Part shown: piece after piece, positions 43,502-62,327 of the stretch | Layout of the letters: every line of letters starts with the position of its first letter | Numbering within the stretch: the stretch's first letter is position 1 | Origin: a virus | IMG/VR virus record: IMGVR_UViG_3300046004_000518 | Span: 46,478 to 110,477 of that record | Strand: one strand, 5' to 3' | DNA length: 64,000 nt | Notes under the pieces: generated by a model | Seen by the model: the letters and a program-made list of their open reading frames with translations, nothing else | Told to the model about the DNA's origin: nothing | The model's database searches: none | Position numbers and translations under genes: made by a program

Positions 43502-44795
43502 ATTCCGGTAAATGATCCAATATATTATTGTTGTGTACTTGTTCAAATGCCTTGGTAAACTTAACTAGATTCGCACGTTCTTGTTCGCAGTCTAAGGGCA
43601 CCTGTATAGCTTCTAAGAGCTGTTTATACTCAAAGATTAAGTTGCTGATCACAGGTCTTACAAGGTCTTCTCTACGGCGATTAATTATGGTTTCATTCGG
43701 AACCAAACTATGCCGTTGGATTACTTGATCTAATTTTGCTACGGCAGTCTTACGTAGATCATTGGGCAACAGTTCAATGCGCAGGCAAGTGGGATCGCTA
43801 AGAATATTGCAACTTTCAGCAATAACGCCATTGACCAACATGTACTCAAACACTTGATCTAAATGATATATGGTATAGATGCTAGGTGTAATACGTAAGG
43901 TAATTTGTATGCCTGTAGAATCACGTAGTGCTAGAAAACGATCTAGATTATGTTTAACTTCATCAATCTTACTTGGATAGCGTATATAATCGTTTAGTGA
44001 GTCGAATGTTTCTATACTAACGCCTAGATGAAACTGTTTAAACTCACTTATAATATCAGCAAGTTCATCACTGTAGATAGTACCATTGGTAGTAATGCCC
44101 ACAATGATATCACGGCTAATACCTGCGGCAATTAATGCTGAACATATACGATAAAAGCTCTTTAGATAAAGTGTTTCTCCACCTAAAAAGTGTAGATACT
44201 TAAGACCTTTTATTTCTATTAACTCAGTAACAAACTTATCTACTAACTCATCATTGTCTGACCAATTCTTAAAACGATCATAGGTTTTAAAAATTGTAGG
44301 CTCAATAGCTGTTAACTGTTCATACTCTTTAGTTAGACGACTGCTGTAGGTAGGATTACACATGATACAGCTACTATTACAAGTATTACCTAGATCAATT
44401 TGAATATCAACTGGCGTGCGATTGATTTGCCCATCATTCTTATACGAGTAATTAAAATTTGACCAATGCGGACTGCTGACAAATGTCTTATTAAAGTTAT
44501 CTACAGTAACAGCACTTTTCAGTAGTTGCCGTTGACGACCACTAACTTTATTATGCTGATCTTCGTAATAACAGCCCTGGCATTCTGTACTAGGAATACC
44601 GGATAGTTGCTGTGTACGAAACGCACACATTGTAGGACTGTTCATAAACTCTGCAATTGATGTGTCGCAGATATTGTAATCACTTTGCCCGTCACCTGGT
44701 CGCCATTCACTCATCCAACGACAGGGAATGTAATAGCCTGCTGGCGTTATTCTAAAGTGGAACCAAGGACTGGAGCAAAATGTATCTTTAAGCAT
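43470..44795 (-). CDS. Radical SAM protein with N-terminal twitch/SPASM-like Cys cluster
   Basis: CNSSCIMC (CxxxCxxC), GGE, TNGT; N-terminal CSSPW..PC...CQGC. Confidence 0.9.
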   Translation of the reverse strand: MLKDTFCSSPWFHFRITPAGYYIPCRWMSEWRPGDGQSDYNICDTSIAEFMNSPTMCAFRTQQLSGIPSTECQGCYYEDQHNKVSGRQRQLLKSAVTVDNFNKTFVSSPHWSNFNYSYKNDGQINRTPVDIQIDLGNTCNSSCIMCNPTYSSRLTKEYEQLTAIEPTIFKTYDRFKNWSDNDELVDKFVTELIEIKGLKYLHFLGGETLYLKSFYRICSALIAAGISRDIIVGITTNGTIYSDELADIISEFKQFHLGVSIETFDSLNDYIRYPSKIDEVKHNLDRFLALRDSTGIQITLRITPSIYTIYHLDQVFEYMLVNGVIAESCNILSDPTCLRIELLPNDLRKTAVAKLDQVIQRHSLVPNETIINRRREDLVRPVISNLIFEYKQLLEAIQVPLDCEQERANLVKFTKAFEQVHNNNILDHLPEYEEFLRSYGY

Positions 44796-45415
44796 TAACG
44801 TTTCGTAATAACTTCGTCGGCTAAACCGTAGGCCACTGCTTCATCTGCTGACAAGAATGTATCAAACTTCATTGCTTCATATAGTTCGTCGTACGTTTTA
44901 CCAGCAGTATTGTGACGTGCATATAACTCTGTTAGACGTTTGTTAATGCGCACACTTTCTTCAAAGCTACGTTTAGCATCTTCAAATTGTAGGTCTTGTA
45001 CGTGTACACTACCACGGGTGCCCGGAGTACCTGAACTAACACGGTGAATCATTGTACGTGCTTCTGGTAGGACAATACGCTTGCCTGGCGCACCTGCTTG
45101 CGCTAGGAAGCTACCCATTGAGCAGGCTTGACCAAGTACAATAGTTGATACATCACATTTGATAAACTGCATTGTATCATAAATTGCTAGGCCAGCAGTA
45201 ACACTGCCACCTGGACTATTGATGTAGAACAAGATATCTTTCTCTGGGCTTTCGCTTTCTAAGAACAGCATCTGTGCCACGATTAAACTAGCAGTATGCT
45301 CGTTAACATCAGTGTCCAACATGATGATACGATCTTTAAGTAAACGACTATAAATGTCATAGCTACGTTCGCCTTGACTTGTACGTTCTACTACCATTGG
45401 GACTAAAGTTGACAT
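44795..45415 (-). CDS. clpP: ATP-dependent Clp protease proteolytic subunit
   Basis: [33 protein letters not shown] (Ser), MIHR (His). Confidence 0.95.
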
Positions 45416-45423
45416 GTGATTCC

Positions 45424-46293
45424 TTATATTAAAGTTACTGATTTGACATATTGTCTAGTGGTTAATTGTTCCATTACATCTGTTGCGTTAACTAAATCTG
45501 CCAAGGGTATTGCACCGATATTTAAATACGGATGGCCCCAAGGCAAGTTACGCTGTTCAAAAAACTTATTATGTGTATCATAGTATTGTTTTATTATAAC
45601 AGATTGTTCTGTTACTTGTCTATGATCTGTTGAATAAAATTTAACATTGAAATCTGCACTATAATGTCTAAATGGTTGGAATGCCTCATCTGCAATATAT
45701 GTATCATTGTCTACTGCTAGATTATCTAGAGTCTTGCCAATTTCCGCATAGTTCAAATACACTGTACCAAACTTTATAGCAGGTTCGAACAATGCGTAAT
45801 CTTCTACAGCCAGTGTTTCTGTTTTAGGCAAACCGTAATAGGTCACTACGTGCCTAGGTTGTGCACCTCGATTAACACTTTCGCACCGATGAACAAGTAA
45901 GTTTAAATCTGCTAATGCTAGCCTAACTTCTGGCGATGCTGTCTGCCATACTGGATGTGTCTGCTGATCTAGTAACCCGTGATATACTTCAAAAATATGA
46001 TGTAGATAATTTAATGTATCTTGATCAGCAACGTCAGTTAGTTGTCGATTAATGATTTGTTCATGAGAATTGATAAGCGCAATACATTGTTGCATACGGT
46101 GCAATGCATCTGCTGTTTGTTCTTCTATAGAGCCAAATCCATAAAATCTATCAGGAGCATCAATTGGATATTGCGTCTGAGCTAGCAGTAGTCTTTCAAT
46201 CCATTTTTTAGTTACTGCATGGTTTCTTAATTTAAAATGTAAAGTTACCGAATCGGAAAGATCTGCCGGATTAGCATATTCAATCGCTAACAT
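45424..46293 (-). CDS. Phage hypothetical protein
   Basis: 289 aa; LNYLHHIFE and LNLLVHRCE His motifs; coupled to the TraR-like gene. Confidence 0.7.
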
Positions 46294-46532
46294 TAATGTC
46301 GTTCTGCACGTTCTTTACAAAAAATGCAGAGTCTAACACCGGGTATGGCAAGCTGTCTTGCTCGTGGTATTTCATCGCCACATTCTTCGCAATGTTCAAG
46401 ACTTGGTTGAGCGGCCTGTTTGGCTAGCTCACGTTGTACTGCGGCAATATGATTCATGTTATTATGAATAGCATGAAGCTGACCCATTTCTGCTTCTTCT
46501 TCGTTATTATATTGAAATTCATCAGTAACCAT
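46293..46532 (-). CDS. TraR/DksA C4 zinc-finger protein; start revised to MVTDEF
   Basis: CEECGDEIPRARQLAIPGVRLCIFC; AAGGA RBS. Confidence 0.88.
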   Translation of the reverse strand: MVTDEFQYNNEEEAEMGQLHAIHNNMNHIAAVQRELAKQAAQPSLEHCEECGDEIPRARQLAIPGVRLCIFCKERAERH

Positions 46533-46560
46533 TTGTTGTTTCCTTATTCTCAAGTAACAT

Positions 46561-47744: not shown

Positions 47745-47773
47745 ATTATACAGTCATTTTACCAAAATGTCAA
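47745..47773 (-). promoter_or_regulatory. Sigma70 promoter, conserved-spacer family
   Basis: TTGACA-TTTTGGTAAAATGACTG-TATAAT. Confidence 0.88.
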
Positions 47774-48066: not shown

Positions 48067-48098
48067 TTGTTCTTCCTTGTTAACAGTTTATGTATAGC

Positions 48099-48127
48099 AT
48101 TATACAGTCAATTTACCAAAATGTCAA
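48099..48127 (-). promoter_or_regulatory. Sigma70 promoter, conserved-spacer family
   Basis: TTGACA-TTTTGGTAAATTGACTG-TATAAT. Confidence 0.88.
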
Positions 48128-48149
48128 TCGAAATAAATGTAAATACAAT

Positions 48150-49223
48150 ATGACTAATTCAATACACGTATACGTTGACTCCGACGTTAGCGAATATAAT
48201 CTAAGAATGCTCAATGAATCACAAATTATAATCTATAGAAATGTAGAAGAATTTAAATCATTGCCTGCTGGTACTAATAGACATGCATTGTTTCATGCTT
48301 GTTTTCCGTATTATTCGGATGCAGAAAATGCATTCGACGGAGTTATATTACAACTGCTGGATTTCTGTCAGACAATATCAGTTCTTGTATCTGAAGTGCA
48401 TATACCGATTGTTGATTTTATGAATCGCTTTCAACAACCACAGATGCGATATCTTATATGTGGATTTGTTGAAGGAATTACCACATATCCTTGGATGGAT
48501 TGGTTTCAAACTACTAGTGCGTTTTATAAAAATAATACAAACATATTAGATCAATTACACCCGTATGATGTTAAACCTAAACACTTTGATATATTATTAG
48601 GACAGCCCAAACCTCACAGAGATCGAATTTATCATTATATAAAAAATAACAATCTTAAAGACAAAGTAACAATGACCTATCTAGTAGATCATTGGAGTAA
48701 ATCAATTCGAGCTCATGGCACTGATGGTTTTATATTAGACGAGCCCGGATTAATAATTCCGAACGAAGAATTCAATTGGACTGTTACCCGAGTAAGCTAC
48801 TATGGTCGGCCAATGAGTTTAAGTCAGGTTGTACCAATTTCTATATACAATCAAACTGCATACACTGTGATTGCTGAAACTAATCTTGAAAATCATTATA
48901 CGTTTTTTACTGAAAAAACATGTAAACCAATTCTGGCAGAACGATTGTTTATAATGTTAGGCGGGCAATATTATCTACGCAATCTACGAGAACTCGGATT
49001 TAAAACATTTGATGGTATCATAGATGAAAGTTATGATTTGGAGCCAGATAATAATCAACGATGGGCCATGGCAATAGAACAAATGAAATATCTCTTTAAC
49101 CAACCACAAGCCGAAGTATTGGCCAAGGTTAAGCCTGTTGCCCAACACAATAAACAGGTTATGTTAACAACTGAGTGGGTAGATATTATGCGTGGCAATC
49201 TAAGAAAAATTATCACCAAGTAA
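48150..49223 (+). CDS. GT10-like (fucosyltransferase-fold) glycosyltransferase; start revised to MTNSIH
   Basis: VIAET...FFTEKTCKPI...LRELGFKTFDGIIDESYD; TAAATA 4 nt before the ATG. Confidence 0.65.
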   Translation: MTNSIHVYVDSDVSEYNLRMLNESQIIIYRNVEEFKSLPAGTNRHALFHACFPYYSDAENAFDGVILQLLDFCQTISVLVSEVHIPIVDFMNRFQQPQMRYLICGFVEGITTYPWMDWFQTTSAFYKNNTNILDQLHPYDVKPKHFDILLGQPKPHRDRIYHYIKNNNLKDKVTMTYLVDHWSKSIRAHGTDGFILDEPGLIIPNEEFNWTVTRVSYYGRPMSLSQVVPISIYNQTAYTVIAETNLENHYTFFTEKTCKPILAERLFIMLGGQYYLRNLRELGFKTFDGIIDESYDLEPDNNQRWAMAIEQMKYLFNQPQAEVLAKVKPVAQHNKQVMLTTEWVDIMRGNLRKIITK

Positions 49224-49256
49224 ATTAAGTGTAAATAATATTACAAGGAGAACTAC

Positions 49257-49523
49257 ATGATTAATTTTATCAAACAACTTTTTGGCTTTGGCGCACCGCA
49301 AGAAACTGTTAAAGAAATTTTAACACCACCAGCTAAAGCTGAAGTACCAGCTGCTGTTTACATTCCACCAGCTAAACCAACAAGACAACGTGCAGGCACA
49401 GTAGCAGACATTAAATTAGCACCATTACCAGCTAAAACAACTGCACCAGCTAAGAAACGTAAACCATATTATGGTAAAAAGAAATCTGCTGCAAAGACAA
49501 AAACGCCAGTGGCAGTTAAGTAA
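49257..49523 (+). CDS. Small Pro/Ala/Lys-rich protein
   Basis: AAGGAG RBS; TAAATA at 49232-49237. Confidence 0.7.
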   Translation: MINFIKQLFGFGAPQETVKEILTPPAKAEVPAAVYIPPAKPTRQRAGTVADIKLAPLPAKTTAPAKKRKPYYGKKKSAAKTKTPVAVK

Positions 49524-49549
49524 AAAAAAGCACCGAAAGGTGCTTTTTT
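49522..49549. terminator. Bidirectional rho-independent terminator
   Basis: A8-GCACC-GAAA-GGTGC-T6 between convergent genes. Confidence 0.88.
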
Positions 49550-49555
49550 GTGGCT

Positions 49556-50782
49556 TTAATTACGGTTGGGAAAATAATCAGTTAGTACACCAGTCCTACT
49601 TATATCACTGGTAATACAATGTATGCCGGCATCCCAAAAATGACTATGTCTAAACTGTACAATATGCGGAGTTATACCATGACGTTCAAATGCATCAAAT
49701 ATTATTTTATTATAACTTTCACATATTACATTTTTTTCATCTATTACCAACATATTAACATCGAATATAGTTTCTTCTACATAACCAACCCAATGGTTTA
49801 AATATTCTTCTACAAAGTCTACAAAGTCATCATCGATGGGTTGATTTGGAACCCACCATTTTCCACCATTTTTCTGTTTTAATTTCACAAACGGATCAAT
49901 TAACCCTAACTTATTTTCATTAGGCACGTAGACTATTTCCCAGTCAGGGAATAATTTAGTGTAGTCAGATCCTGGTATATCGTAACTACTGATAATTAGA
50001 CCAGGTTTAACGGGACTATAAGTTCCATCAGCATGTCCGGCTGTGTTAATTGCATGCCATCTGTAATCAGGATAATGTTCTCTAATTTTTTCCATCTGTC
50101 GAGTAGTATCATGATTATGATATTCATTACCTACGTAGATATCTTTGCCTATTTGAAACATTGTAGCGGTGTTAAAATTACATAGGTACCAAGGAACATC
50201 AGTGAAAATTTTATTACCATTGGTTAATATATCATCAAATGTAGATCCCCAGATTTTCTTATTCATATCGGTGATATGATATTCACCGGCAGGTCCTGTT
50301 ATTCTAACTCCGGTTAGATTAAATATTTCTTGTTTGATATTTTCTGGCAGAGCTGATAATTGATCTATTGTAATATCAGTAGGCCAATTATTACTTTTTA
50401 TAATATCCCAACTGTTTATTATTGCAGTAAAATCATTAACATTTTTTGTACCTGATCGTTCCTCGGAGTTTAGGAAATAGATTCCATCATCCATGGCAAT
50501 AGTATAATCACGAGGGCATGTTGGTGGTCTTAATATTTTTCCAGTTTTAGCAGAAGTATATTCTTGCCAATTATCGGACAATTCTGGTCGCAATACTTTG
50601 ACTCCAAAGTTCGCTAAACACTTAGCTAAGATCTGATAATCTTCTTCAGTTTCCTCAGCAATAAGTTCTAACATACTGCGGACTTTTGTATTTTTTATAA
50701 ATTTAAAAAATTCAGGCGAATATGATCTACCTAAAATACAAACTTTAAGCGGATCCCATCGTTGATATACATTATAAGTCAT
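49556..50782 (-). CDS. Amidinotransferase (pentein superfamily) #1; start revised to MTYNVYQ
   Basis: WDPL..C, ETEED, CPRD, GHADG, FDVNML, DAGIHCIT. Confidence 0.85.
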   Translation of the reverse strand: MTYNVYQRWDPLKVCILGRSYSPEFFKFIKNTKVRSMLELIAEETEEDYQILAKCLANFGVKVLRPELSDNWQEYTSAKTGKILRPPTCPRDYTIAMDDGIYFLNSEERSGTKNVNDFTAIINSWDIIKSNNWPTDITIDQLSALPENIKQEIFNLTGVRITGPAGEYHITDMNKKIWGSTFDDILTNGNKIFTDVPWYLCNFNTATMFQIGKDIYVGNEYHNHDTTRQMEKIREHYPDYRWHAINTAGHADGTYSPVKPGLIISSYDIPGSDYTKLFPDWEIVYVPNENKLGLIDPFVKLKQKNGGKWWVPNQPIDDDFVDFVEEYLNHWVGYVEETIFDVNMLVIDEKNVICESYNKIIFDAFERHGITPHIVQFRHSHFWDAGIHCITSDISRTGVLTDYFPNRN

Positions 50783-51104
50783 CTGGCCAATCTCTATAAT
50801 ATGCATGTTGTATATTACCCGATACAAACTGATTAAAGCTCTTGTGCTTGTCTTCTAATTCGCCTTTCAACGGTGCCACACGTTTAAATGCATTTTCTAA
50901 CTGTGTCATATCTGTAAATTCTATCATAATATGCCACTCAGGTAAATCTTGTATGCTACGGAATCCCATCTTACAACGTGTAACTCTGTAGCTGACTGCT
51001 TTGTTCTCATCAACTAAATGTTGAAGAAAGCCCTTCATATTGTTGACCCAATCTAAATCGCTGATGTCATCTGATTTGTCAGCCCAAATATGATAAATGT
51101 CCAT
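50772..51104 (-). CDS. Small alpha+beta (probable dimeric barrel/ferredoxin-like) protein; start revised to MDIYHIW
   Basis: RCKMGF...PEWHIMIEF...QLENAF...YRDWPD; fold guessed from pattern. Confidence 0.55.
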   Translation of the reverse strand: MDIYHIWADKSDDISDLDWVNNMKGFLQHLVDENKAVSYRVTRCKMGFRSIQDLPEWHIMIEFTDMTQLENAFKRVAPLKGELEDKHKSFNQFVSGNIQHAYYRDWPDDL

Positions 51105-51105
51105 G

Positions 51106-52281
51106 TTAACCCCTTTCTGGAAAATAATCTTGCATGGTGCCTTTACGGCTAATATCGCTAGTGATACAATGTAGTCCACCATCCCAGAAATATCTATGAC
51201 GGAAATTTACAATATGTGGAGTAATACCATGGCGATCAAATGCATCGAATACCTGCTTGTTGTAATTGTTACACACTACATTCTTTTCATCAATGACCAA
51301 CATATTGACATCGAATACAGTTTCTTCTACATAGCCAACCCAATGCGACATCCATTGCTCGACGTAGTTAGTAAAATCATCATTAAGTTCTTCTCCAGGA
51401 ACCCACCATTTGCCCATGTTTTTTCTTTTAAGATCTAAGAATGGCGCTACTGCTTCCCAGCTTTGTCCGGGCAAATACACAACTTCCCAGTCTGGAAAGG
51501 TTTTAGCATACGTAGGAATATCATTTAGACTAACTATCAATCCCGGTTTAACTGGGCAAAAGGTACCATCGTTATGTCCACCAGTGTCTACACTGTGCCA
51601 TCTATATTGTGGTTTGTTTAGATTGAGCCATTTGATTTTTTCGGATATATCCTGCTTATAATGCTGTGTACCTGCGTAGATGTCTCGACCGACACGAGTG
51701 TAAGTTGCTGCATTTAAATCTCCAGCAAAATACATACTTTCTTTAGAACTTATATCTCCCCGTTGATCTTTTGTTCGATCTAATAGAGTTTTCCAGGTAA
51801 AATTAATATCAGTTAATTCACTGTCGGCTTTGATTGCTAGTAATTCATCGAAAACCCAGTCTGGTAATTCAGCTACTTCTTCGATGGTAGTGGGACAGTT
51901 AGGTGGCCAATCAGCTCCTTTGAGCTGATCCCAGGTAGCTTGACCTGCATCAAATGTTGCTCGTTGTGCATAGTTAAAATAGAATTGGTCACCTAACATC
52001 AATGAATAATCCCTGGGAGTCATAGGCGGTGGCTTTATTGAACCGCCTTGATTTAAATAAAATTCATAATCATCACTAACCTCAGGACGAATTACTTCAA
52101 CCTTGAATGATTCTAATAATTTAATCAATGATTGAAAATCTTCTTCTGTTTCTTCTGCTATTTTTTCAAATACAGCTCGAACTTTATTATTTTTAATATA
52201 AGAATAAAATTGTGGACTGTAGCCTCGTCCGACTACACACACTTCCAACGGATCCCAGTGTTGATAAACAGAATATGTCAT
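51106..52281 (-). CDS. Amidinotransferase #2 (close paralog of #1)
   Basis: WDPLEVC, ETEED, TPRD, GHNDG, FDVNML, DGGLHCIT. Confidence 0.88.
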   Translation of the reverse strand: MTYSVYQHWDPLEVCVVGRGYSPQFYSYIKNNKVRAVFEKIAEETEEDFQSLIKLLESFKVEVIRPEVSDDYEFYLNQGGSIKPPPMTPRDYSLMLGDQFYFNYAQRATFDAGQATWDQLKGADWPPNCPTTIEEVAELPDWVFDELLAIKADSELTDINFTWKTLLDRTKDQRGDISSKESMYFAGDLNAATYTRVGRDIYAGTQHYKQDISEKIKWLNLNKPQYRWHSVDTGGHNDGTFCPVKPGLIVSLNDIPTYAKTFPDWEVVYLPGQSWEAVAPFLDLKRKNMGKWWVPGEELNDDFTNYVEQWMSHWVGYVEETVFDVNMLVIDEKNVVCNNYNKQVFDAFDRHGITPHIVNFRHRYFWDGGLHCITSDISRKGTMQDYFPERG

Positions 52282-52706
52282 TATAATTTTCCTAGTAGTT
52301 CAAATCCATCTAATTGATTTTTATATTCATCTGCTAATCCCAGATACAAATATTCAAATCCACGTGCTTTATATATAGCACATTCATTTTTTAAACTTTC
52401 TATTCCTAATCTAAGTTTTGGATTCTGATAGTCCCACGCAAACTGCAATGCTTCGGCACTATACTTGTCATATGTCCTAACTAAACTAAATGCAACTAAA
52501 TCATTATTATCATAATATCCAATAACATCAGTGTGCTCATCATGATATTGTATATCGAATATTGGCATCACACTCGTGAACTGTTTGTATTCACAATATA
52601 ATTTATAAATTTGATTTAATTTATTGATGTCAAATTGATGCAGATATTGATAATTGTTCAAAGGCCGGTAATCGGTCTTGCTTAGATCAATTCTACAGTA
52701 TTTCAT
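52281..52706 (-). CDS. GNAT-like protein resembling the C-terminal domain of aminoacyl-tRNA-protein transferases (ATE1/Bpt)
   Basis: YDNNDLVAFS...FAWDY..PKLRLG..SL..E...K.RGFEYLYLG. Confidence 0.6.
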   Translation of the reverse strand: MKYCRIDLSKTDYRPLNNYQYLHQFDINKLNQIYKLYCEYKQFTSVMPIFDIQYHDEHTDVIGYYDNNDLVAFSLVRTYDKYSAEALQFAWDYQNPKLRLGIESLKNECAIYKARGFEYLYLGLADEYKNQLDGFELLGKL

Positions 52707-53204
52707 TTAACTATTATAACGCCATGTAACTACTTCGTCAAGTTCTGATTGACTCCAAGAGTCATAATAACCTGCGGCGCGAAGTTTGTCAGCCGCTTCG
52801 TTTAGCTTACTTAACCGTTGGATAACATATAATCCACACTGCCCAAAATTCATTTTAATACGGTTGACGTGTTCAACTAAGTCTGGATGATCTTCAAGGA
52901 TAACATAATCGTGTTCCATTAACTCATCATTTAGTGTGGCAGTTAAATTTTGGCAGTCTATGCCTGATATTAGTGTATGGTCAAAACAAATAACAACTAC
53001 TTCATACTCACCAAGTAATGGCAAAATACGATTAACATTATAAGTAAGTTCGGGAATAGTACTGTCTGTTATATATATCTTGTTATTTAATCGTGCGGCT
53101 TGTGCATAAGGACACGGCGCCCAAGTACCCAATGCTGGATTCGGTTTCTCAACAAACGTTTTCATCCATTCGATTAGTTGAGTTTTAATTATCTCGAAAT
53201 TCAT
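52707..53204 (-). CDS. DUF1415-like hypothetical protein
   Basis: W...FVE.PN...PCPYA; DHP; IQR motifs. Confidence 0.5.
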   Translation of the reverse strand: MNFEIIKTQLIEWMKTFVEKPNPALGTWAPCPYAQAARLNNKIYITDSTIPELTYNVNRILPLLGEYEVVVICFDHTLISGIDCQNLTATLNDELMEHDYVILEDHPDLVEHVNRIKMNFGQCGLYVIQRLSKLNEAADKLRAAGYYDSWSQSELDEVVTWRYNS

Positions 53205-54253
53205 TAGTCAATAATGCCAAAGTTTGCCCAACGTGCGCCACCTATGCATACCCATCCTATAGGCCCACCCGGTGAAGGCAATTCATTATAAACAATCTGT
53301 GCTAGTTCACCTGCATAGTTTGGAACTGTGGCCGATGATGTCATTGCCACACGACCCACAACTAAATTTTCTACATGTACATTACCTTCAGTATCGAGTA
53401 CAATATTTTCTTTATTGTTACTACCGAGTATCAACGGTTGTTTACGTGCTGTGCCAATGTATCCAGTATCCTGTTTACGTTTGGCTACGACTAATTCAAC
53501 TTCTTCATCCCAAACTGCCAACGCACTGCTTGGCTCCATGGTGTTAACACCAACTCTACGTTGTGTGACATAAAGTGTTTCACTTAATAAATTCTCGCCC
53601 GATGTTTGTAAGTCTTTAACCACACCTACACGTTGTAGATTACTATCAACAATATGATATCCTAGTTGCGATCCTTTAACAATTTCTTTACCACCTTGTG
53701 TGATGCGATCTAAATCAATGCCGGTTTCCTGCATCTTAGCAAATACAATATCACTGAATCCAGTAAACAATTGTGCATCAAGTTTATCAACAACTGCGGC
53801 ACTGGCGGCAGAAACAAACTGTGCAAATCCCGGGCTTGCTTCTGACACAGTGCCATTGAGATTCAGTGCACCATCAATTGTTAAATCGCCTTTGATTTCT
53901 GCGCTAGGTGCAAATACAGAATTTTCAAATGCCACAGCATGATCCATAAGTGTCATCTGTACAAAACTGGCTCGATCTTCAATGCCAGTACTGCCGAAGT
54001 TTTGTACAATACCGCTGTTGATATTATCGCCGGATAGACTAAATCCTCGAAAATTTACAGCAGTGTGTGGTATACTTTGTTCTGGGAAACTATGTAATTT
54101 AATTATCTCAGCTATTTTAGATTTGACAATTTCATTTACTATTAGGTTGAGATCAATAGTGGCTAATTGTTTTTTTAGTTCTTGCTCGATTGTTGCGTTG
54201 AGGTTGCCTAATAAGCCGGCGACGACAGGCTGTAATTGTTGATTGATATCCAT
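53204..54253 (-). CDS. Hypothetical protein with fibre-like beta repeats (possible virion component)
   Basis: N-terminal helix; SNLQRVG..L; RVGVNT; IGWVC..W..FG C-terminus. Confidence 0.55.
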   Translation of the reverse strand: MDINQQLQPVVAGLLGNLNATIEQELKKQLATIDLNLIVNEIVKSKIAEIIKLHSFPEQSIPHTAVNFRGFSLSGDNINSGIVQNFGSTGIEDRASFVQMTLMDHAVAFENSVFAPSAEIKGDLTIDGALNLNGTVSEASPGFAQFVSAASAAVVDKLDAQLFTGFSDIVFAKMQETGIDLDRITQGGKEIVKGSQLGYHIVDSNLQRVGVVKDLQTSGENLLSETLYVTQRRVGVNTMEPSSALAVWDEEVELVVAKRKQDTGYIGTARKQPLILGSNNKENIVLDTEGNVHVENLVVGRVAMTSSATVPNYAGELAQIVYNELPSPGGPIGWVCIGGARWANFGIID

Positions 54254-54271
54254 ATGCTCACTCGAAAAACT

Positions 54272-55003
54272 TTAAATTGAAATTGATATTACATGCTCAT
54301 AGTTTCTACGTATAAGACTTTTGTACATTAAATCCTTGTGTACATAAAACTGTTTAGCACCAGCATCGATACTAAACTTTGCTAACTGTTTAAAAAACAT
54401 TGCGCGACGACTAAACGGACCATACGATTTTGTATTACTATCCTGCATTTCATATACCGTTGTTGCCCATGCATTTTTATCTGAATATTCATACTTGTGA
54501 TATTCTAAAAATACCAAACTATCACTGTGATTATAAACTGCCTGTGGTTGACTAAACTCACGGTCTTTAAAGTTCTGATTTTTATAATCACGTAATGTCG
54601 TAACTATTAAATCCTTAGCTAAACTGGCAATTATTTCCACACTAGTCTGTTGCTCTTGCTCTGTGTTGGCAAATGTGAAATATTCATCACCTGCTACTAC
54701 CCACGAGAATTGTTTCTTATATCCCGGTAAATCTTTTACATCTATATATGTGTATTTAATGTCGCTAGCGTCGAGGTAATTTTTTGTTTCGTCGGTTATG
54801 TTAGTAACAAATATTTGTTTATAAGTAACACCCAACATCAATGGGCTAAAACCGACAAATAAGATACTTGTTGGGTTAGATTTGTAGTGATGAGCAATGC
54901 CAGTTAGTATCTCTTGCTTTTTATTAATTGCATCTTGACTTTTAAGATTAAATTGCAAAGCATTAAGTGATGCTTGTGTGTACGTCGCGAAGCTATGCGG
55001 CAT
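54272..55003 (-). CDS. Degenerate Rossmann methyltransferase-like protein
   Basis: SILFVG, F.WVVAGDEYFTF, TTLRDY resemble class I MTase strands, but the Gly-rich motif is absent; TAAATA at 55024-55029. Confidence 0.4.
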   Translation of the reverse strand: MPHSFATYTQASLNALQFNLKSQDAINKKQEILTGIAHHYKSNPTSILFVGFSPLMLGVTYKQIFVTNITDETKNYLDASDIKYTYIDVKDLPGYKKQFSWVVAGDEYFTFANTEQEQQTSVEIIASLAKDLIVTTLRDYKNQNFKDREFSQPQAVYNHSDSLVFLEYHKYEYSDKNAWATTVYEMQDSNTKSYGPFSRRAMFFKQLAKFSIDAGAKQFYVHKDLMYKSLIRRNYEHVISISI

Positions 55004-55030
55004 TGTAATTCCCCTGTTACAAATATTTAG

Positions 55031-55945
55031 TTATTCTCTAACTAAATCAAGGGTTACGCAGTGGAAGCCACCGCCAAGTGTCCTGCTATGACGTAGTTGC
55101 ATTGGAATAGTCGTAAAACCTGCCTTCTCTAAGTCTTCTATAAGTCTATATTGTGCCCGATCGACAATTACTGTATTAGGATCTATACTCAACATGTTTA
55201 AGCCAATCCATTTACTTGCGTATGGATATTCATGAAAACCTTGTGCTTCAACGTCATTAACCCATAGTTTAGTCCAACCATCAAAGGCTCGAGGGCAGGT
55301 ATCGGGAGTTACTCTGCTGGCATTAAGTACAACAAAGCCTTCTCGTAACGGAACAATGGTGCTGTCGATATGCACACCATTAAACAATTTACATGATTCG
55401 ATAGTGATATGCGGTAATTTTTTACGTAGCCAATCTAATGCCAATTGATTGCCACTGTCGCTTAATAGATATAACCAAGTGTTACCAAGTCTGCATACAT
55501 TGGCCGCATCCATTACCATACCTTGATTGCGTGGCATTGGCATTACTGTGTTGGCAGACCTTAGCACAAAATCTAATGCTTCAATTTCTTGATCACGGCA
55601 AGGATACATCATTGCAGGATCTATAACACAACCATCAGCAATTAATAATCTATCACGTGGGCAATAATTATACATGCCCCCACGTTCAACAAAATTCATT
55701 TCGTGTGGGCGAAATACTTCTATACCTAATTTAGTTAATACAGTAGCAAGCTCATCTAAATCTTCATTTGACTCGTCAACAATCCATTGCGGTACAGGAC
55801 CGCTTGGTACTGGTGTTTCCTTCCATAATGTTTTTAAATGCTCTTGTGAGAATACAGGATCATTACTAGGCCAATTTGCGTAGGTAGCTGATCCCACTAC
55901 AATACTTTTTAATTTGCCCCATTCATTACTTGTGCTTATTTTCAT
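55031..55945 (-). CDS. Amidinotransferase #3 (StrB1/glycine amidinotransferase-like)
   Basis: NEWGKLKSIVVG, EDLD, YCPRD, DAAN, SGN, HIDST, GGGFHCVTLD. Confidence 0.92.
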   Translation of the reverse strand: MKISTSNEWGKLKSIVVGSATYANWPSNDPVFSQEHLKTLWKETPVPSGPVPQWIVDESNEDLDELATVLTKLGIEVFRPHEMNFVERGGMYNYCPRDRLLIADGCVIDPAMMYPCRDQEIEALDFVLRSANTVMPMPRNQGMVMDAANVCRLGNTWLYLLSDSGNQLALDWLRKKLPHITIESCKLFNGVHIDSTIVPLREGFVVLNASRVTPDTCPRAFDGWTKLWVNDVEAQGFHEYPYASKWIGLNMLSIDPNTVIVDRAQYRLIEDLEKAGFTTIPMQLRHSRTLGGGFHCVTLDLVRE

Positions 55946-56447
55946 CTATATGTCCTGTTATCTGCAATGTATATCTTGGAGTCAGTCCCATGTTTGCCGC
56001 AAGGTGCAGACGATCGTATTGCCAAATTACAACATCGCCTGCTGACCAATTAACAATTGGTGTGTTATCTAATTCCAAATAATGTCCGCTGGCCCATGCT
56101 TCTAAAAATACCACAGCACGAAATATAGTGTGCTCTTGTCCTTTGAGATCGAACAACTCTATATATCTTTTATAGGTATCTCGATGAGCAGGTAATACTG
56201 TTCCACTGCTCATACGATAATAACTAGTGCCAACATCAGACCAGCCGAGTTTATTAAAGTATTTAACAAACATCGGGTTCCAAACTGGTTGTGGTCTACG
56301 CATATCACACATAGCGCCAGTGAACTTGCCTGGATAACCCTGTTCTATCCATGTGGCTGTATCATTAGGATTGTTAAATGCTTCTACAGCATAGTCAAGT
56401 TGTTTAAAACTATCATCCCAAAATGGTTGAATATTAAACTTGTCCAC
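55926..56447 (-). CDS. 2OG-Fe(II) oxygenase / cupin
   Basis: PAHRD (HxD), distal H in HLAAN, R in RYTLQITG. Confidence 0.8.
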   Translation of the reverse strand: MDKFNIQPFWDDSFKQLDYAVEAFNNPNDTATWIEQGYPGKFTGAMCDMRRPQPVWNPMFVKYFNKLGWSDVGTSYYRMSSGTVLPAHRDTYKRYIELFDLKGQEHTIFRAVVFLEAWASGHYLELDNTPIVNWSAGDVVIWQYDRLHLAANMGLTPRYTLQITGHIDENKHK

Positions 56448-57672
56448 GAGTATTTCCGTAATGGATTACCTTGTAATTAGTGCTGTTAAATTTGCGCCAT
56501 GGATCTAATATAATACTTTGACTACCAGGAGTAAAGTATAATTGTTGTTCTGGCAATTCACCGGTGTAGCCATAGGTAATCTGGCGATTGTGTGCTAATA
56601 ATACCACAGCATCTTGTCCATCAGCAACCGTGTCACCAGTTAATGGGTCACTGTAACTAAATTCTACACCTAAGTCTGTTAAGTAGTGCCCTATTAATAA
56701 ACTGTAGCTACCATCTAACATATCCACATCGGGCTTATAAGCCTTGCCATGAATAACCACAGGCAAGTTGTGTTCATCTGCTAGGTCAGTTAAGTATACC
56801 GCAAGATTTTCTGCTTGCTTTTCTCTGGCGTGCATGACTGTGTCAAAGATATCGTAGCCTAGGTCTAGATTCTCAGCTAGCCAACGTAGGGCAATGTTAT
56901 CACGTGGGTGACAAGGACCAGCATCGCCCATGCCTGCCGTCATATACTTGGTACTGATAATACGCATAGTCGATGCGCATAGTGCGCCAGTTACAACATC
57001 AACATCGATATTGCCCGATTTCATAGCAACGTCTTGTATCATGTTTACCAGACCAACTTTAGTTGAAATAAAAGTATTATAGAAAATCTTAATTGCTTCT
57101 GCTTCATCCCACGTACCAACAGCAATATGCGGATTGTTCTGCATCAATGGTGCGTAAAAGTCCGTAAGCAACTTAGCATCACCTGTTACACTTCCATCTT
57201 CTGTACCAATAATAATCATATCTGGATTTACCATATCCCAAGCCACACTGCCCATAGCAATTAAATATGGGTTATAGATAAAACGTGCGTTGGTAATATG
57301 CTTGCGTAGTTCTCTACGTGTGGTACCCGGTAATACTGTACTGATTAATACTACAAGCTGGTCTTGTGTTACATATTGATTAATATCTGCTAGGACCTGA
57401 TTTACAATAGTGTAATCAAAGTCTTTGTTAGCCAGGTGGGTAATAGGTTGACTACCATCATAGATTGGATCATGTGGTGTTTGTACTGCTACAAAGATAA
57501 CATCTTTGCCACGCACTGCTCCTTCTAATGTATCAGATATTGTTATCTTGCTACTAGTCCGTGGGTAAATATCATAGCCAGTGACAGCATATGATTGTGC
57601 CATTACTTCTGCACATGCTAGGCCTAGTTTACCGATTCCAACGAATCCTACTGTTTTTAATTGAGACGACAT
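56434..57672 (-). CDS. ugd: UDP-glucose/GDP-mannose 6-dehydrogenase family protein
   Basis: GIGKLG, AVQTP, STVLPGT, YNP, IKIFYN, GPCHPRD, AYKP. Confidence 0.9.
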   Translation of the reverse strand: MSSQLKTVGFVGIGKLGLACAEVMAQSYAVTGYDIYPRTSSKITISDTLEGAVRGKDVIFVAVQTPHDPIYDGSQPITHLANKDFDYTIVNQVLADINQYVTQDQLVVLISTVLPGTTRRELRKHITNARFIYNPYLIAMGSVAWDMVNPDMIIIGTEDGSVTGDAKLLTDFYAPLMQNNPHIAVGTWDEAEAIKIFYNTFISTKVGLVNMIQDVAMKSGNIDVDVVTGALCASTMRIISTKYMTAGMGDAGPCHPRDNIALRWLAENLDLGYDIFDTVMHAREKQAENLAVYLTDLADEHNLPVVIHGKAYKPDVDMLDGSYSLLIGHYLTDLGVEFSYSDPLTGDTVADGQDAVVLLAHNRQITYGYTGELPEQQLYFTPGSQSIILDPWRKFNSTNYKVIHYGNTRGQV

Positions 57673-57674
57673 TA

Positions 57675-58790
57675 ATGCTCCAAGTTGATCATGTTTACGA
57701 ATTTTTTTACTCTACTATCTTCAATGAATTCGAGATGTGTTTTTGTTTGGGCGGAGTCGTTATTTCCGACGCAGCAAACACTCATGTATTTACACGCATT
57801 GCTATGGAGGAGAAAAAAATCTTCTTTTATGATCAGGAACCATTTATACCTAGTCTAGCATTGCCGTATATGTCAAAGTTTATAACCGAACAAGGTCCAC
57901 ATATTTTAGCAATCAGCGAACATTCGGCTTGCCTAAATGATTACATCACAGACAACAATTTTAATAAATTATATTATTTCTTTCACGGCTTTGCGGCATT
58001 AGATTGGTATCGTGGATTCTATGCTCTTAACTATAATAAGCAAGTAGTTAAAGAATATACGCATGACTATGTAACGTTTAATCGTTTGGTGGCCAACGAC
58101 CGCAGTTATCGTTGTTACTTTGTTAGTAAGCTGGCAGAAGAATTTTTGTTAGAACACGGACAAATTAGTTTTGGGCTAGCAACAGAGCAGGCCACTTGGC
58201 AGGAAGAAATTGCTGATGGTAATACAAAATTATCATCTAAAGCAATTGATCATATTAAACTGCATTTACCAAGCACGCCATTGGTTATAGATAATGAACA
58301 GGTATTGGGTTCAGCTAGTGCAGATATCCCACGTTGCATTAATGATAGCCTGTGGCATATTGTAACCGAAACTGTGTTCTACTATGATAAACTACACCTA
58401 ACTGAAAAGATATTTAAACCTATTGTAATGAAACAACCATTTATGTTACTTGGCGCACTGGGTAATTTAGCCTACTTAAAGTCATACGGCTTTAAAACAT
58501 TTGAAGGCATAATAGATGAATCGTATGATTTTATTCAAGACAATGATCTACGTATAGAAGCTGTAGTTAAGCAGTTAGCTTGGTACTGTGCGTTAACAGC
58601 AGAAGAAAAACAACAGGTTATAGAGGCTATAGCGCCAATCGTAGAGTACAATTTCCATCACTTCTACGGTGAGTTCAAGCATATTATCACAAGAGAACTA
58701 CTTGATAATTGTCAGACTCTATTCAAGGAAATAGGCTACGACGATAACGCCATAGCCTATGATGATATATATCGAGTACTAACTAGTTAA
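57675..58790 (+). CDS. GT10-like glycosyltransferase #2; start revised to MLQVDH
   Basis: IVTET...HLTEKIFKPI..KQPF...LKSYGFKTFEGIIDESYD. Confidence 0.65.
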   Translation: MLQVDHVYEFFYSTIFNEFEMCFCLGGVVISDAANTHVFTRIAMEEKKIFFYDQEPFIPSLALPYMSKFITEQGPHILAISEHSACLNDYITDNNFNKLYYFFHGFAALDWYRGFYALNYNKQVVKEYTHDYVTFNRLVANDRSYRCYFVSKLAEEFLLEHGQISFGLATEQATWQEEIADGNTKLSSKAIDHIKLHLPSTPLVIDNEQVLGSASADIPRCINDSLWHIVTETVFYYDKLHLTEKIFKPIVMKQPFMLLGALGNLAYLKSYGFKTFEGIIDESYDFIQDNDLRIEAVVKQLAWYCALTAEEKQQVIEAIAPIVEYNFHHFYGEFKHIITRELLDNCQTLFKEIGYDDNAIAYDDIYRVLTS

Positions 58791-59248: not shown

Positions 59249-60280
59249 TTAATTTTCAAGGCTTTTCCAGAACTCATACAACTTAAAACTGGCTAAGTTC
59301 TTGCCTTTTGCCTCTACCATTATATCAGCCCACTGCCAGTGCTGATGTGCCCATTCATTTACAGCAGTATTCCACATAAAGTCTGAATGTGCTCGCAGTT
59401 TGCTTTTCTTGTAGCCCTGTTCTAATAATAAATTATAATCAGGTTTTACCTCAACATCATGATCAACGAGATAATCTTCACGACTAATGCTATAATGTAC
59501 AACAGGACGGACGCCACGCCAAGCATCCAGAATGCGTTGGATACGCGAGTCCATAGCGTTGATATATTCCCCCTCACGAACAAAATGGTGATGGACATCG
59601 AGCACAATAGGAATACCATGATCGCTAAGAACAAGACAGTCGTCTAGGCCATGTTTCATTTCCTCATTTTCTATAGTTAAGGTATTACGTGCTTCGGGTG
59701 ATAACTTACCGTAGACGTCAATAATACCTTGTGCACCTCTACGACCTGCAATATGCACATTACACTTGAAGTCTTGGAATGTCCGACCATAGCCCATCCA
59801 ACGGATCATATCCGCATGGTATTCAAATTCGTCTATACTTCTTCGAACAATGTCATCATTATCACTCGCAAGTACTGTGAATTGACCTGGATGAAAAGAT
59901 AAGCGCACATCAAGCAAACGAGCAAGCTCACCCACCTTACTGAACGCCTGCTCGCAATAACTAACGACATCAGGCTTGCGCCAAAAATAACACCAATCAG
60001 ACTGAGTGTATACTGGTAGTATATCAGAGCTGATACGAACCATCCTAAGGTTGCCATTTAATGTTCCAATTCGTTCTATTAACTTACGTGTTGATTCTAT
60101 GTTACCTACCATTAGGTCCCATAGTTTTTGTTCGGCAACTTCCTTAGTCTGGCGATTAAGCCATGCTACTGTTGTACTTCCGGTATTATACTGTTTAGCA
60201 TCATCAAGAGGTTTGATCCCAAGAACTTGATCGGGGCGATCAATCCACTTACAAGCAAAGCCGATGCGTTTAGTATTCAT
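59249..60280 (-). CDS. uvsE: UV-damage endonuclease; start revised to MNTKRIG (probably leaderless)
   Basis: RIGFAC, RISSD, SFHPGQF, IENE, DVHHH, AHSD, MVEAKGK. Confidence 0.93.
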   Translation of the reverse strand: MNTKRIGFACKWIDRPDQVLGIKPLDDAKQYNTGSTTVAWLNRQTKEVAEQKLWDLMVGNIESTRKLIERIGTLNGNLRMVRISSDILPVYTQSDWCYFWRKPDVVSYCEQAFSKVGELARLLDVRLSFHPGQFTVLASDNDDIVRRSIDEFEYHADMIRWMGYGRTFQDFKCNVHIAGRRGAQGIIDVYGKLSPEARNTLTIENEEMKHGLDDCLVLSDHGIPIVLDVHHHFVREGEYINAMDSRIQRILDAWRGVRPVVHYSISREDYLVDHDVEVKPDYNLLLEQGYKKSKLRAHSDFMWNTAVNEWAHQHWQWADIMVEAKGKNLASFKLYEFWKSLEN

Positions 60281-60286
60281 AATATT

Positions 60287-60315
60287 ATTATACAATTAAT
60301 TTATTAAATTGTCAA
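60287..60315 (-). promoter_or_regulatory. Sigma70 promoter TTGACA-17-TATAAT, 6 nt upstream of the uvsE ATG
   Basis: Perfect consensus; predicted TSS coincides with the ATG. Confidence 0.8.
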
Positions 60316-60708: not shown

Positions 60709-60716
60709 TATAAATA
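60709..60716 (+). promoter_or_regulatory. T4-type late promoter TATAAATA
   Basis: Exact consensus upstream of the plus-strand operon. Confidence 0.7.
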
Positions 60717-60751: not shown

Positions 60752-61033
60752 ATGGGCGATATTTTCAAACTAATTGGCGATTTAGGCTTCCCCGTTGCAA
60801 TGGCATTAGCCGGCGGGTACTTTGTTTATCTTACAATTAAACTATTATTAGCTGGCGTACTCGGTGCAATTAAAGGTATGGCTGGTATCATCACTGCATT
60901 AGACAACAGAGTTAAAACAATGAATCACGATGTTATACGCATCGATACAGTGGTGTCAAACGCACTTGGTTTAAAACCAGACGTCGACCGTATTAGTCGT
61001 GCTGATGGTAAAAATGACGCTCGGAGAGATTAA
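60752..61033 (+). CDS. Single-TM protein with GFP motif and coiled coil (holin-like, paralog A)
   Basis: LIGDLGFPVAMALAGGYFV...ALDNRVKTMNHDVIRI. Confidence 0.6.
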   Translation: MGDIFKLIGDLGFPVAMALAGGYFVYLTIKLLLAGVLGAIKGMAGIITALDNRVKTMNHDVIRIDTVVSNALGLKPDVDRISRADGKNDARRD

Positions 61034-61827
61034 TGACTACACCAATTAACATGCGCCCGTTTACAGAACAGGCGGCCTTATTTGCACACATCAGTGAAAT
61101 AGCATACTTAGATATACCAGAAGGTCCTGCTAAATTTGCTGAACTTGGATTTATCGCAGAACTAATAGACGTAAACGGCAGTCAAGCATACTGGTTGCAA
61201 AATGATACAGATTTGGTCATTGCTTGCCGTGGTACACAACCAACAGACTTTCGTGATATAGCCGCTGATTTAAAAGCTCGTCCGGTAAAAAGCTCACAAG
61301 GCATTAACTTTGTACACGATGGATTTAAATCTAGTGTAGATAACATATGGCCTGAACTAACAGCCAAGGCTAAGAAGTACGGTAAGAAACGCACTGTGTG
61401 GTGCACGGGTCATAGTTTAGGTGCGGCTATGGCTACTTTAGTTTCATTCAAACTACAACGTGCTGAAGATTTACCCAGCCCACAGGCCTTGTTTACTTAT
61501 GGCAGTCCGAAAGTAGGTAACAAAGACTACATCAAAGCCATTGAAGAAATTGGTCTATTACACTTCCGCTTTGTCAACAATGCAGATATCGTTACACGTG
61601 TTCCACCGTGGCCATATTTACACTTTGGTGGTATGTACTATATGAACCACTGGGGTAACTTACGTACACTTACCTGGACGCAATTAATACAGGACCGCTT
61701 ACGTGGTTTTTGGAAAGGTATTAAGAAAGGTGAAATTAACTTCTTTAGTAACCACAGCATCACACGTTATAAAGAAAACTTAGAGCGTTGGGCACGTGGT
61801 GAAGAACGCTCTCAAGATAAAATTTAA
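61033..61827 (+). CDS. Class 3 lipase
   Basis: ACRGT, VHDGF, TGHSLG, YGSPKVG, NNADIVTRVP, NH. Confidence 0.92.
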   Translation: MTTPINMRPFTEQAALFAHISEIAYLDIPEGPAKFAELGFIAELIDVNGSQAYWLQNDTDLVIACRGTQPTDFRDIAADLKARPVKSSQGINFVHDGFKSSVDNIWPELTAKAKKYGKKRTVWCTGHSLGAAMATLVSFKLQRAEDLPSPQALFTYGSPKVGNKDYIKAIEEIGLLHFRFVNNADIVTRVPPWPYLHFGGMYYMNHWGNLRTLTWTQLIQDRLRGFWKGIKKGEINFFSNHSITRYKENLERWARGEERSQDKI

Positions 61828-62000: not shown

Positions 62001-62327
62001 ATGGATGTAGTAGATTTAGTAAACAAATATGGCTTTCCCATTGTTATGGCAGTGGGCATGGGATTTATCATCAAATATGTGTGGGAATGGGCAACAAAAG
62101 AGGTGAAACCAGTCATAAATGATGCAAATACTGTGCTTATTGCCTTGATTGATCGCATACGTATGTTAGACAACGATTTGATACGGTTGAATCAAAAAGT
62201 AAACACTGTACTACACCTACGTGGCAAAACCATTGAGTTTGAACGTGTAGAAGCCGAAGCAGAAATTAATAAACACACATTAAAGAAATCAGAAGATGAT
62301 AAAGCCGCTAGTGGCGGCAGTGACTAA
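62001..62327 (+). CDS. Single-TM protein with GFP motif and coiled coil (paralog B)
   Basis: LVNKYGFPIVMAVGMGF...ALIDRIRMLDNDLIRL; AGGAG RBS. Confidence 0.65.
   Translation: MDVVDLVNKYGFPIVMAVGMGFIIKYVWEWATKEVKPVINDANTVLIALIDRIRMLDNDLIRLNQKVNTVLHLRGKTIEFERVEAEAEINKHTLKKSEDDKAASGGSD

Follow-up and report, generated by a model that had tools for sequence, protein, structure and literature searches.

Layout of the island and its two modules

We analyzed a 64,000-nucleotide stretch of viral DNA (the window, to which all coordinates refer unless another record is named) that covers bases 46478 to 110477 of a 110-kb virus fragment in IMG/VR (IMGVR_UViG_3300046004_000518; completeness 28% by CheckV). 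Our subject is an island in which ten minus-strand genes run from 57672 to 49556 between two plus-strand glycosyltransferase paralogues, GTa and GTb. An earlier note, made from the letters of this DNA, had read the island as one integrated pathway built around three amidinotransferases. It had described a co-oriented, mostly overlapping ten-gene run bracketed by two glycosyltransferases, and every open reading frame (ORF) was indeed found where the note had placed it. Genes of the run overlap or abut by 1 to 20 nt, except at two junctions with gaps of 19 to 28 nt. At the high-coordinate end, GTb (57675 to 58790; longest ORF from 57591), a glycosyltransferase of the GT-B fold, and ugd (56434 to 57672), a divergent member of the UDP-glucose/GDP-mannose dehydrogenase family, have divergent start codons 2 bp apart, and the chosen starts fit those of homologues. 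The minus-strand run continues with ox (55926 to 56447), which encodes a 173-aa 2-oxoglutarate (2OG)-Fe(II) oxygenase of a prolyl-hydroxylase-like subgroup and whose end overlaps the start of AT3 (55031 to 55945), an StrB1-type L-arginine amidinotransferase. It is followed by p243 (54272 to 55003), which possibly has a class I methyltransferase (MTase)-like fold, and by the gene for a fibre-like protein (53204 to 54253), a candidate target or structural protein. These genes constitute module A, with AT3 at its core and the fibre-like gene as its last member.

Module B follows on the same strand. It begins with a DUF6875/DUF1415-like gene (52707 to 53204), whose product has a PCP[YF]A motif with an invariant Cys, and continues with ATE_C-like (52281 to 52706), a stand-alone 141-aa GNAT domain that resembles aminoacyl-tRNA transferases; AT2 (51106 to 52281), an AGAT-like amidinotransferase paralogue that is an optional member of the module; and a small DUF6614 protein (50772 to 51104; the longest ORF reaches 51182, and the start at 51104 fits homologues). 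AT1 (49556 to 50782), a second AT2-type amidinotransferase, closes the run, and GTa (48090 to 49223) converges on the operon end from the other side.

Homologues of AT3 were found at 59 loci in IMG/VR, and ox was the upstream neighbor of AT3 at all 59; its stop overlapped the AT3 start by 4 nt at 31 of them, the commonest arrangement. Where the flank sufficed, AT3 was accompanied by GTb at 54/54 loci, ugd at 46/54, p243 at 34/49, and the fibre-like gene at 40/49, and GTa was present at 24 of the 59. Module A is very common in aquatic metagenomes. Genes of module B (AT1, AT2, ATE_C-like, DUF6875-like, and DUF6614) stood beside the AT3 core only in the window, in a close relative (L006), and, in part, in one more contig. 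At six loci, including L006 and L007, a 592-nt gap separates ox from AT3 and holds a 176-aa reverse-strand ORF, which in L007 (2929 to 3459, minus strand) looks by eye like a homing endonuclease of the GIY-YIG type.

A search with the ATE_C-like protein returned 69 IMG/VR loci, with DUF6875-like, ATE_C-like, and DUF6614 as the recurring unit. In most of the 69, the DUF6875-like and ATE_C-like genes are direct neighbors. DUF6614 is syntenic in most module B loci, and 29 of 68 loci have an AT2-type gene next to the ATE_C-like one. In whole-record searches of complete relatives, two (G001 and G002) carried module A and no ATE_C-like gene, two (G005 and G007) carried the ATE_C-like cassette and no AT3, and three (G003, G006, and G008) carried both modules, 91 to 137 kb apart. 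The synteny survey in IMG/VR that the earlier note had proposed thus gave a divided answer: AT3 stays with the sugar genes, as predicted, whereas AT1 and AT2 are unlinked to them elsewhere, since their cassette is absent, alone, or distant in the complete relatives. A single integrated triple-amidinotransferase pathway does not survive this comparison. Judged from gene neighborhoods, the island is the junction of two independently conserved modules, not one pathway, and module B is an independently mobile, arginine-centered cassette. The count of three amidinotransferases arises because the modules are juxtaposed here and because AT2 was duplicated locally: AT1 and AT2 are 48% identical over 410 aa, while either of them shares only about 24 to 33% identity with AT3, over partial length, and AT1 is probably a local duplicate of AT2. 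A tandem AT1 copy occurs in this window and in L006, and another contig (L139) has two tandem AT2-type genes.

Predicted enzymes of the two modules

Neither AT3 nor AT1 nor AT2 belongs to a named family in Pfam, NCBIfam, or PHROGs. Among PDB sequences (searched with phmmer), AT3 aligned over its whole length with StrB1 of Streptomyces griseus (PDB code 1BWD; E = 1.1e-58), which belongs to the streptidine branch of streptomycin biosynthesis. Its residues D98, D146, H192, D194, and C296 correspond to D108, D179, H227, D229, and C332 of StrB1 and are invariant or nearly so across 18 homologues. AT3 thereby shares all of the catalytic and arginine-binding residues of StrB1, has the full Cys-His-Asp triad, and is, as far as its residues tell, a complete amidinotransferase. 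The two proteins differ in length (304 aa for AT3 and 348 aa for StrB1), with about 23 residues missing from AT3 between two aligned blocks, and in company: the neighbors of AT3 are ugd, the small oxygenase gene ox, and genes for GT-B glycosyltransferases, whereas those of StrB1 are inositol dehydrogenase, aminotransferase, and kinase genes. A literature search found nothing on StrG beside StrB1.

AT2 and AT1 matched AGAT (PDB code 1JDW and related entries), which has the bacterial relatives HsvA and SxtG, in the same search (E = 2.8e-15 and 3.3e-12, respectively). For all three proteins, PDB matches better than an E value of 0.02 were exclusively amidinotransferases, and weaker rows were unrelated proteins (for AT1 and AT2, three aminotransferase chains with E values of 0.02 to 0.05 and Cap5O with an E value of 0.97). 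The possibility that these enzymes are hydrolases, either deiminases or dimethylargininases, had been raised at the outset; no deiminase or DDAH appeared in any of the three match lists, which places AT1, AT2, and AT3 in the transferase branch of the superfamily rather than the hydrolase branch. The PRD, HxD, and C-terminal GxHC motifs ascribed to the three enzymes were found in all of them. AT2 has GGLHC and GHNDG, AT1 has AGIHC and GHADG, and both keep the PRD Asp. AT1 and AT2 thus retain the nucleophile Cys, the His and Asp of HxD, and the Asp of PRD. They differ from AGAT in that its triad Asp (D254) is replaced by Asn and in that they have large mid-protein insertions, and they travel with an ATE_C-like transferase instead of a methyltransferase or a toxin cluster. 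A fourth AT2-type amidinotransferase, AT4 (353 aa), lies outside the window in the same genome, at about 27.9 to 29.2 kb of G000:C1 (L004:1474-2535, minus strand), next to a 208-aa ORF that resembles a nonspecific nuclease and a 245-aa ORF. AT4 has His at the triad Asp position, and the AT2-type clade overall has N, H, T, S, or C there. On other viral contigs, AT2-type genes occur among genes for 2OG oxygenases, GT25-type transferases, radical SAM/SPASM enzymes, and ATP-grasp enzymes.

The AlphaFold model of ox (pLDDT 90.9) has a double-stranded beta-helix (DSBH) fold, all 50 of its 50 best structural matches are 2OG-Fe(II) oxygenases, and H88, D90, H148, and R158 (HxD...H...R) are invariant among 18 sequences, so the initial assignment to this superfamily is well founded. 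By VIA-align, the matches included PiuC (Z = 13.4), a Pseudomonas putida prolyl 4-hydroxylase (P4H) bound to EF-Tu (12.6), prolyl hydroxylases of the PHD type (12.4 and 12.2), a chlorovirus collagen P4H (11.7), and AlkB-family enzymes (10 to 10.9); no TET/JBP enzyme was among the top 50. At the sequence level, ox has no Pfam, NCBIfam, or PHROG family, and a profile search of PDB sequences was empty. It has 4569 nonredundant homologues (clusters at 90% identity), and a profile search of 185,579 species genomes found only five contigs of metagenome-assembled genomes, which resemble mis-binned phage DNA (Haliscomenobacter, Legionella, a Bacteroidetes bin, and Pacearchaeota). A complex prediction for ox and AT3 gave a median score of 0.02, which is uninformative on binding either way.

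The family assignment of ugd was upheld by its N-terminal domain (UDPG_MGDP_dh_N, PF03721; 59 bits against a cut-off of 27, E = 6e-16) and central domain (PF00984; 57.8 bits against 25.4, E = 1e-15); the C-terminal NDP-sugar-binding domain scored 20.7 bits, below its cut-off of 30. Its best PDB matches are UDP-glucose dehydrogenases (E = 3.5e-18), and its sequence has a GxGxxG motif and the Cys motif GPCHPRD. For GTa and GTb, no Pfam, NCBIfam, or PHROG family was found and a profile search of PDB sequences was empty; GTb also had no match by tblastn in 50,697 phage records. The AlphaFold model of GTb (pLDDT 85.5) aligned best with the T4 DNA beta-glucosyltransferase (BGT; Z = 11.2), followed by the protein O-glucosyltransferase POGLUT2 (10.1), the T4 alpha-glucosyltransferase (AGT; 10.1), and POGLUT1 (10.0), and it aligned with GT10 enzymes at a Z of 9.8 (an alpha-1,3-fucosyltransferase), 9.5, and 8.5. 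The two glycosyltransferases had been called GT10-like. The GT-B fold is clear, but the best matches, down to the fucosyltransferase at 9.8, are tied within about 1.5 Z units, with GT10 enzymes level with or below the T4 and POGLUT enzymes, so the call stands as GT-B and not as GT10 specifically.

GTa aligns with the GTb family and shares 34% identity with GTb across the C-terminal 115 aa. A natural 773-aa protein (P0247) consists of a Ugd in its first 388 residues, 58% identical to that of the window, and a member of the GTa/GTb family in its C-terminal part, and a search for longer GTb relatives found several tandem GT-GT proteins of this family. The fusion argues that Ugd and these glycosyltransferases work together and is the best evidence that transferases of the GTa/GTb type use the product of Ugd. 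Downstream of GTa lies an 88-aa ORF (49257 to 49523, plus strand) with no family match, homologues of which adjoin GTa or GTb at seven loci.

For the remaining two members of module A, searches of Pfam, PHROGs, NCBIfam, and PDB (the last by profile) gave no match, and the fibre-like protein had none by tblastn in the same 50,697 phage records. For the calls "MTase-like" and "fibre-like", ESM Atlas feature searches, a language-model method, gave weak leads: p243 hit named MTase clusters (score 0.93, 186 to 187 shared features), and the fibre-like protein hit PTL_trimer clusters (score 0.92, 128 features), its sole lead. The sequence of p243 reads ILFVGFSP at motif I, where a canonical GxGxG is lacking, and has neither an invariant Cys nor a (D/N/S)PP(Y/F/W) motif. 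We also considered the logic of creatine synthesis, in which an amidinotransferase is followed by the methyltransferase GAMT (PMC11360552), and rejected it: neither GAMT nor any solved MTase showed detectable sequence similarity to p243.

In module B, the ATE_C-like protein matched Pfam PF04377 at 24.2 bits (E = 5.7e-5), just under the 25-bit cut-off and over ATE_C positions 25 to 101, and it matched the NCBIfam arginyltransferase with an E value of 4e-4. A PDB profile search returned ATE1 arginyltransferases exclusively (best E = 0.0046), and many of its 2216 metagenomic homologues have PF04377 on record. It had been described as a GNAT like ATE or Bpt; the ATE_C part of that likeness was recovered, below the threshold, while the ATE_N domain with its conserved cysteines is absent. 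The protein is not a canonical ATE1/Bpt member, although it may function in a similar manner. The Cys-motif protein (165 aa; invariant C31) gave weak family matches, to DUF6875 in 9 of 15 members (best E = 3e-5), DUF1415 in 3 of 15 (1e-4), and YqcI_YcgG in 1 of 15 (0.046); a PDB sequence profile search was empty, with no match to AglA. The small protein encoded between AT2 and AT1 matched DUF6614 over residues 27 to 134 (E = 3.7e-22), and its homologue in L006 has 110 aa.

The nearest described counterpart of module B is an enzyme pair from argolaphos biosynthesis in Streptomyces monomycini. AglC/AlpF couples arginine to an amine and needs ArgRS and tRNA, and AglA/AlpD, a YqcI/YcgG heme enzyme with an N-terminal Cys ligand, N-hydroxylates the guanidine (PMC12866846, PMC8976061). 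Module B likewise pairs an aminoacyl-transferase-type GNAT with a small Cys-motif protein in an arginine or guanidine context. The phage transferase is ATE_C-like, however, and not of the Fem type (PF13480) like AlpF, and module B lacks phosphonate genes. The analogy is reasonable but unproven.

For the ox-AT3 pair of module A, a counterpart is found in Synechococcus phage S-SCSM2R (PQ898602), the one record of the 50,697 in which ox (30% identity) and AT3 (33%) both have a homologue. As in the window, the two genes (ORF308 and ORF309) are adjacent, in the same order, and within a glycosyltransferase cluster. That cluster has GT2 and GT25 genes, a DegT-type aminotransferase fragment, and a radical SAM gene in place of ugd, GTb, and p243, and S-SCSM2R is a cultured, 244-kb cyanomyovirus, whereas the phage of the window is uncultured. 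S-SCSM2R also has an AT2-like gene, ORF266, followed by 2OG oxygenases, and purified virions contained both the ORF266 protein and one of these neighboring oxygenases (PMC12801897).

Possible products of the island

We put at roughly even the chance that module A makes and transfers a guanidino-tailored uronic-acid glycan, while module B carries out a separate arginine or guanidine chemistry. Ugd would oxidize an NDP-hexose to an NDP-uronic acid, and the GT-B enzymes GTb and GTa would transfer the sugar derived from it. AT3 would move the amidino group of L-arginine to a primary amine of the sugar, the glycan, or a carrier. The prolyl-hydroxylase-like ox, which is translationally coupled to AT3, would hydroxylate the substrate or acceptor of AT3, and p243 may methylate the product. 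The recipient would most likely be a macromolecule, for example, the fibre-like protein of the same operon or a glycan on the surface of the host. By analogy with AglC and AglA, module B would join an amino acid, probably arginine, delivered by its charged tRNA, to an amine; remodeling of the guanidine would follow. Together, the two modules probably put positively charged guanidino groups onto a glycan or a protein. Because module B is inserted right behind the fibre-like gene in this phage and is translationally coupled to it, both chemistries may share one target here, which would be neither the ancestral nor the usual arrangement. The most specific version, a uronic-acid glycan that bears a StrB1-type guanidino group, is attached to the fibre-like protein of the virion or to a polymer of the host surface, and is further remodeled by a tRNA-dependent arginyl-transfer and guanidine-oxidation cassette, seems doubtful to us.

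We know of no guanidino sugar within a glycan from any organism, and this is the first of several points that weigh against a guanidino-tailored glycan. The closest solved relative of AT3 uses a small phosphorylated cyclitol, not a macromolecule. Pfam scans found no aminotransferase or other amine-installing enzyme within module A, which leaves the origin of an amine for AT3 unexplained; in the relatives, DegT genes of full length lie near thymidylate synthase, far from the island. Because the triad Asp is replaced and variable across the AT2-type clade, the activity or reaction type of AT1, AT2, and AT4 is uncertain. Two members of module A, p243 and the fibre-like protein, match no family and no PDB entry, and the ATE_C-like protein both falls below the Pfam cut-off and lacks ATE_N. 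Finally, the Cys-motif protein is much shorter than AlpD (165 aa against 274 aa) and fits DUF6875/DUF1415 far better than YqcI_YcgG, which makes for a weak link to the heme enzyme.

The known settings of amidinotransferases are creatine, streptomycin, and toxin pathways; decoration of a glycan or a virion is not among them. The earlier note had stated that no phage pathway of this kind is characterized, and our literature search agrees, having found no publication that characterizes module A, module B, or such a pathway. If the proposal is true, the product would be the first guanidinylated glycan or glycoprotein in any organism and would give phages a new route to fixed positive charge on a surface. 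Such a decoration could alter adsorption, resistance to host enzymes, or superinfection exclusion. Given the numbers of homologues of ox (4569) and of the ATE_C-like protein (2216), the products of the two modules would represent abundant, uncharacterized phage biochemistry.

A free arginine-derived small molecule, either an aminocyclitol- or aminoglycoside-like pseudo-sugar or something like argolaphos, which would act unattached on the host or on competitors, strikes us as rather unlikely. It would accord with the resemblance of AT3 to the streptidine enzyme (E = 1e-58), with that of module B to a natural-product enzyme pair, and with the radical SAM/SPASM, ATP-grasp, and 2OG oxygenase genes that surround AT2-type genes elsewhere, and the authors of the S-SCSM2R study read their own copy as an antibiotic-synthesis gene (PMC12801897). 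Pfam scans, however, found no aminotransferase, cyclase, kinase, exporter, or self-resistance gene in the module. The fusion of the GT family to Ugd and the tandem GT-GT proteins instead suggest that an oligosaccharide is built, the nearest glycosyltransferase structures act on macromolecules, and the operon retains a gene that looks structural.

A further reading is direct modification of a protein, in which ox would hydroxylate a residue of a virion protein such as the fibre-like one, the GT-B enzymes would O-glycosylate it with uronic acid, and the amidinotransferases would turn lysines or N termini into homoarginine-like groups. We think this quite unlikely. Glycosylation of hydroxylated residues has precedents of the Skp1 and collagen types, and the best structural matches of ox include the protein hydroxylases listed above, just as those of GTb include POGLUT2 and POGLUT1. 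The fibre-like gene is retained at 40 of 49 loci, an AT2-like protein and a 2OG oxygenase copurify with S-SCSM2R virions, and AT3 is about 44 residues shorter than StrB1, the active site of which is reportedly already open. Against these observations, AT3 is nearest to a small-molecule enzyme, the Z scores of ox for 2OG oxygenases that act on proteins and for those that act on small molecules lie less than 2 units apart, and the fibre-like protein, which has no family, could merely be the next gene. To our knowledge, there is no protein-lysine amidinotransferase.

The earlier note had also named DNA as a possible recipient. As with the T4 alpha- and beta-glucosyltransferases and the 5-hydroxycytosine (5hoC) arabinosylation of RB69 and DLP3, NDP-sugar supply genes stand beside GT-B enzymes, and phage DNA glycosylation by an oxygenase and a glycosyltransferase is established (PMC13326640). 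By a published diagnostic for ThyA, D169 and N177 denote an ordinary dTMP synthase, while N177D and D169N are dCMP-type or 5hoC-type changes (PMC13326640). In four relatives (completeness of at least 98% for three and 80% for one), the ThyA homologues read QRSCDMFLGxPFN, with the canonical D169 and N177, so a base-hydroxylating variant (an hmC, hmU, or 5hoC synthase) of the kind found in phage DNA glycosylation systems was not found in them; the window's own genome (28% complete) gave no ThyA match. DNA hypermodification, in which ox and the MTase-like protein would make a hydroxylated base, the GT-B enzymes would glycosylate it, and an amidinotransferase would decorate an amine on the adduct, is very improbable despite the top rank of T4 BGT among the matches of GTb, the AlkB-family matches of ox, and the UvdE repair nuclease gene that adjoins the module: it is weakened by the canonical ThyA of the relatives and by the missing Cys and (D/N/S)PP(Y/F/W) motifs of p243, the top 50 matches of ox include no TET/JBP enzyme, the Z scores of GTb for DNA-, protein-, and sugar-acting enzymes are tied within about 1.5, and we found no amidinotransferase in any DNA-modification pathway described in the literature.

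Genomic setting and neighboring genes

Complete relatives of the fragment are 329 to 357 kb long, some with terminal repeats, and encode a T4-type major capsid protein, Gp23 (E of about 1e-99). On the basis of this size and capsid protein, the source of the window is classified as an uncultured T4-like jumbo phage. The island had no nucleotide match by megablast in the 50,697 phage records. The idea that the source is a cyanophage was dropped; psbA was not found in the complete relatives. Half-size ORFs of 183 to 206 aa that resemble DegT/DnrJ/EryC1 occur at G000:C1:13-528 and in the relatives G001, G002, and G003.

An unusual accessory set flanks the island on the high-coordinate side. It comprises the UV endonuclease UvdE (59249 to 60295), a class 3 lipase (61033 to 61827), a D-Ala-D-Ala carboxypeptidase of family S11 (62324 to 63163), and a protein with an adenylate/guanylate cyclase domain (63099 to 63995). 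On the low-coordinate side, downstream of the minus-strand run, lie genes for a radical SAM/SPASM enzyme (43470 to 44795), ClpP (44795 to 45415), and a DksA/TraR zinc-finger protein (46293 to 46553). Relatives of the radical SAM/SPASM enzyme flank module B on several other contigs.

Three perfect sigma-70 consensus promoters (TTGACA-17-TATAAT, 12/12 positions) were found, all on the minus strand, at 60287 to 60315, 48099 to 48127, and 47745 to 47773. Their similarity reaches outside the hexamers, and the sites at 48.1 and 47.8 kb belong to near-identical cassettes that precede small ORFs. A site with 11 of 12 consensus positions (52713 to 52741) lies just upstream of the ATE_C-like gene. These sites are probably a family of early promoters. 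The T4-type late promoter TATAAATA occurs in 2 copies in the whole window, compared with 11 expected from shuffles, and not within the island; one of the copies, at 60709 to 60716, precedes the ORFs leading to the lipase gene.

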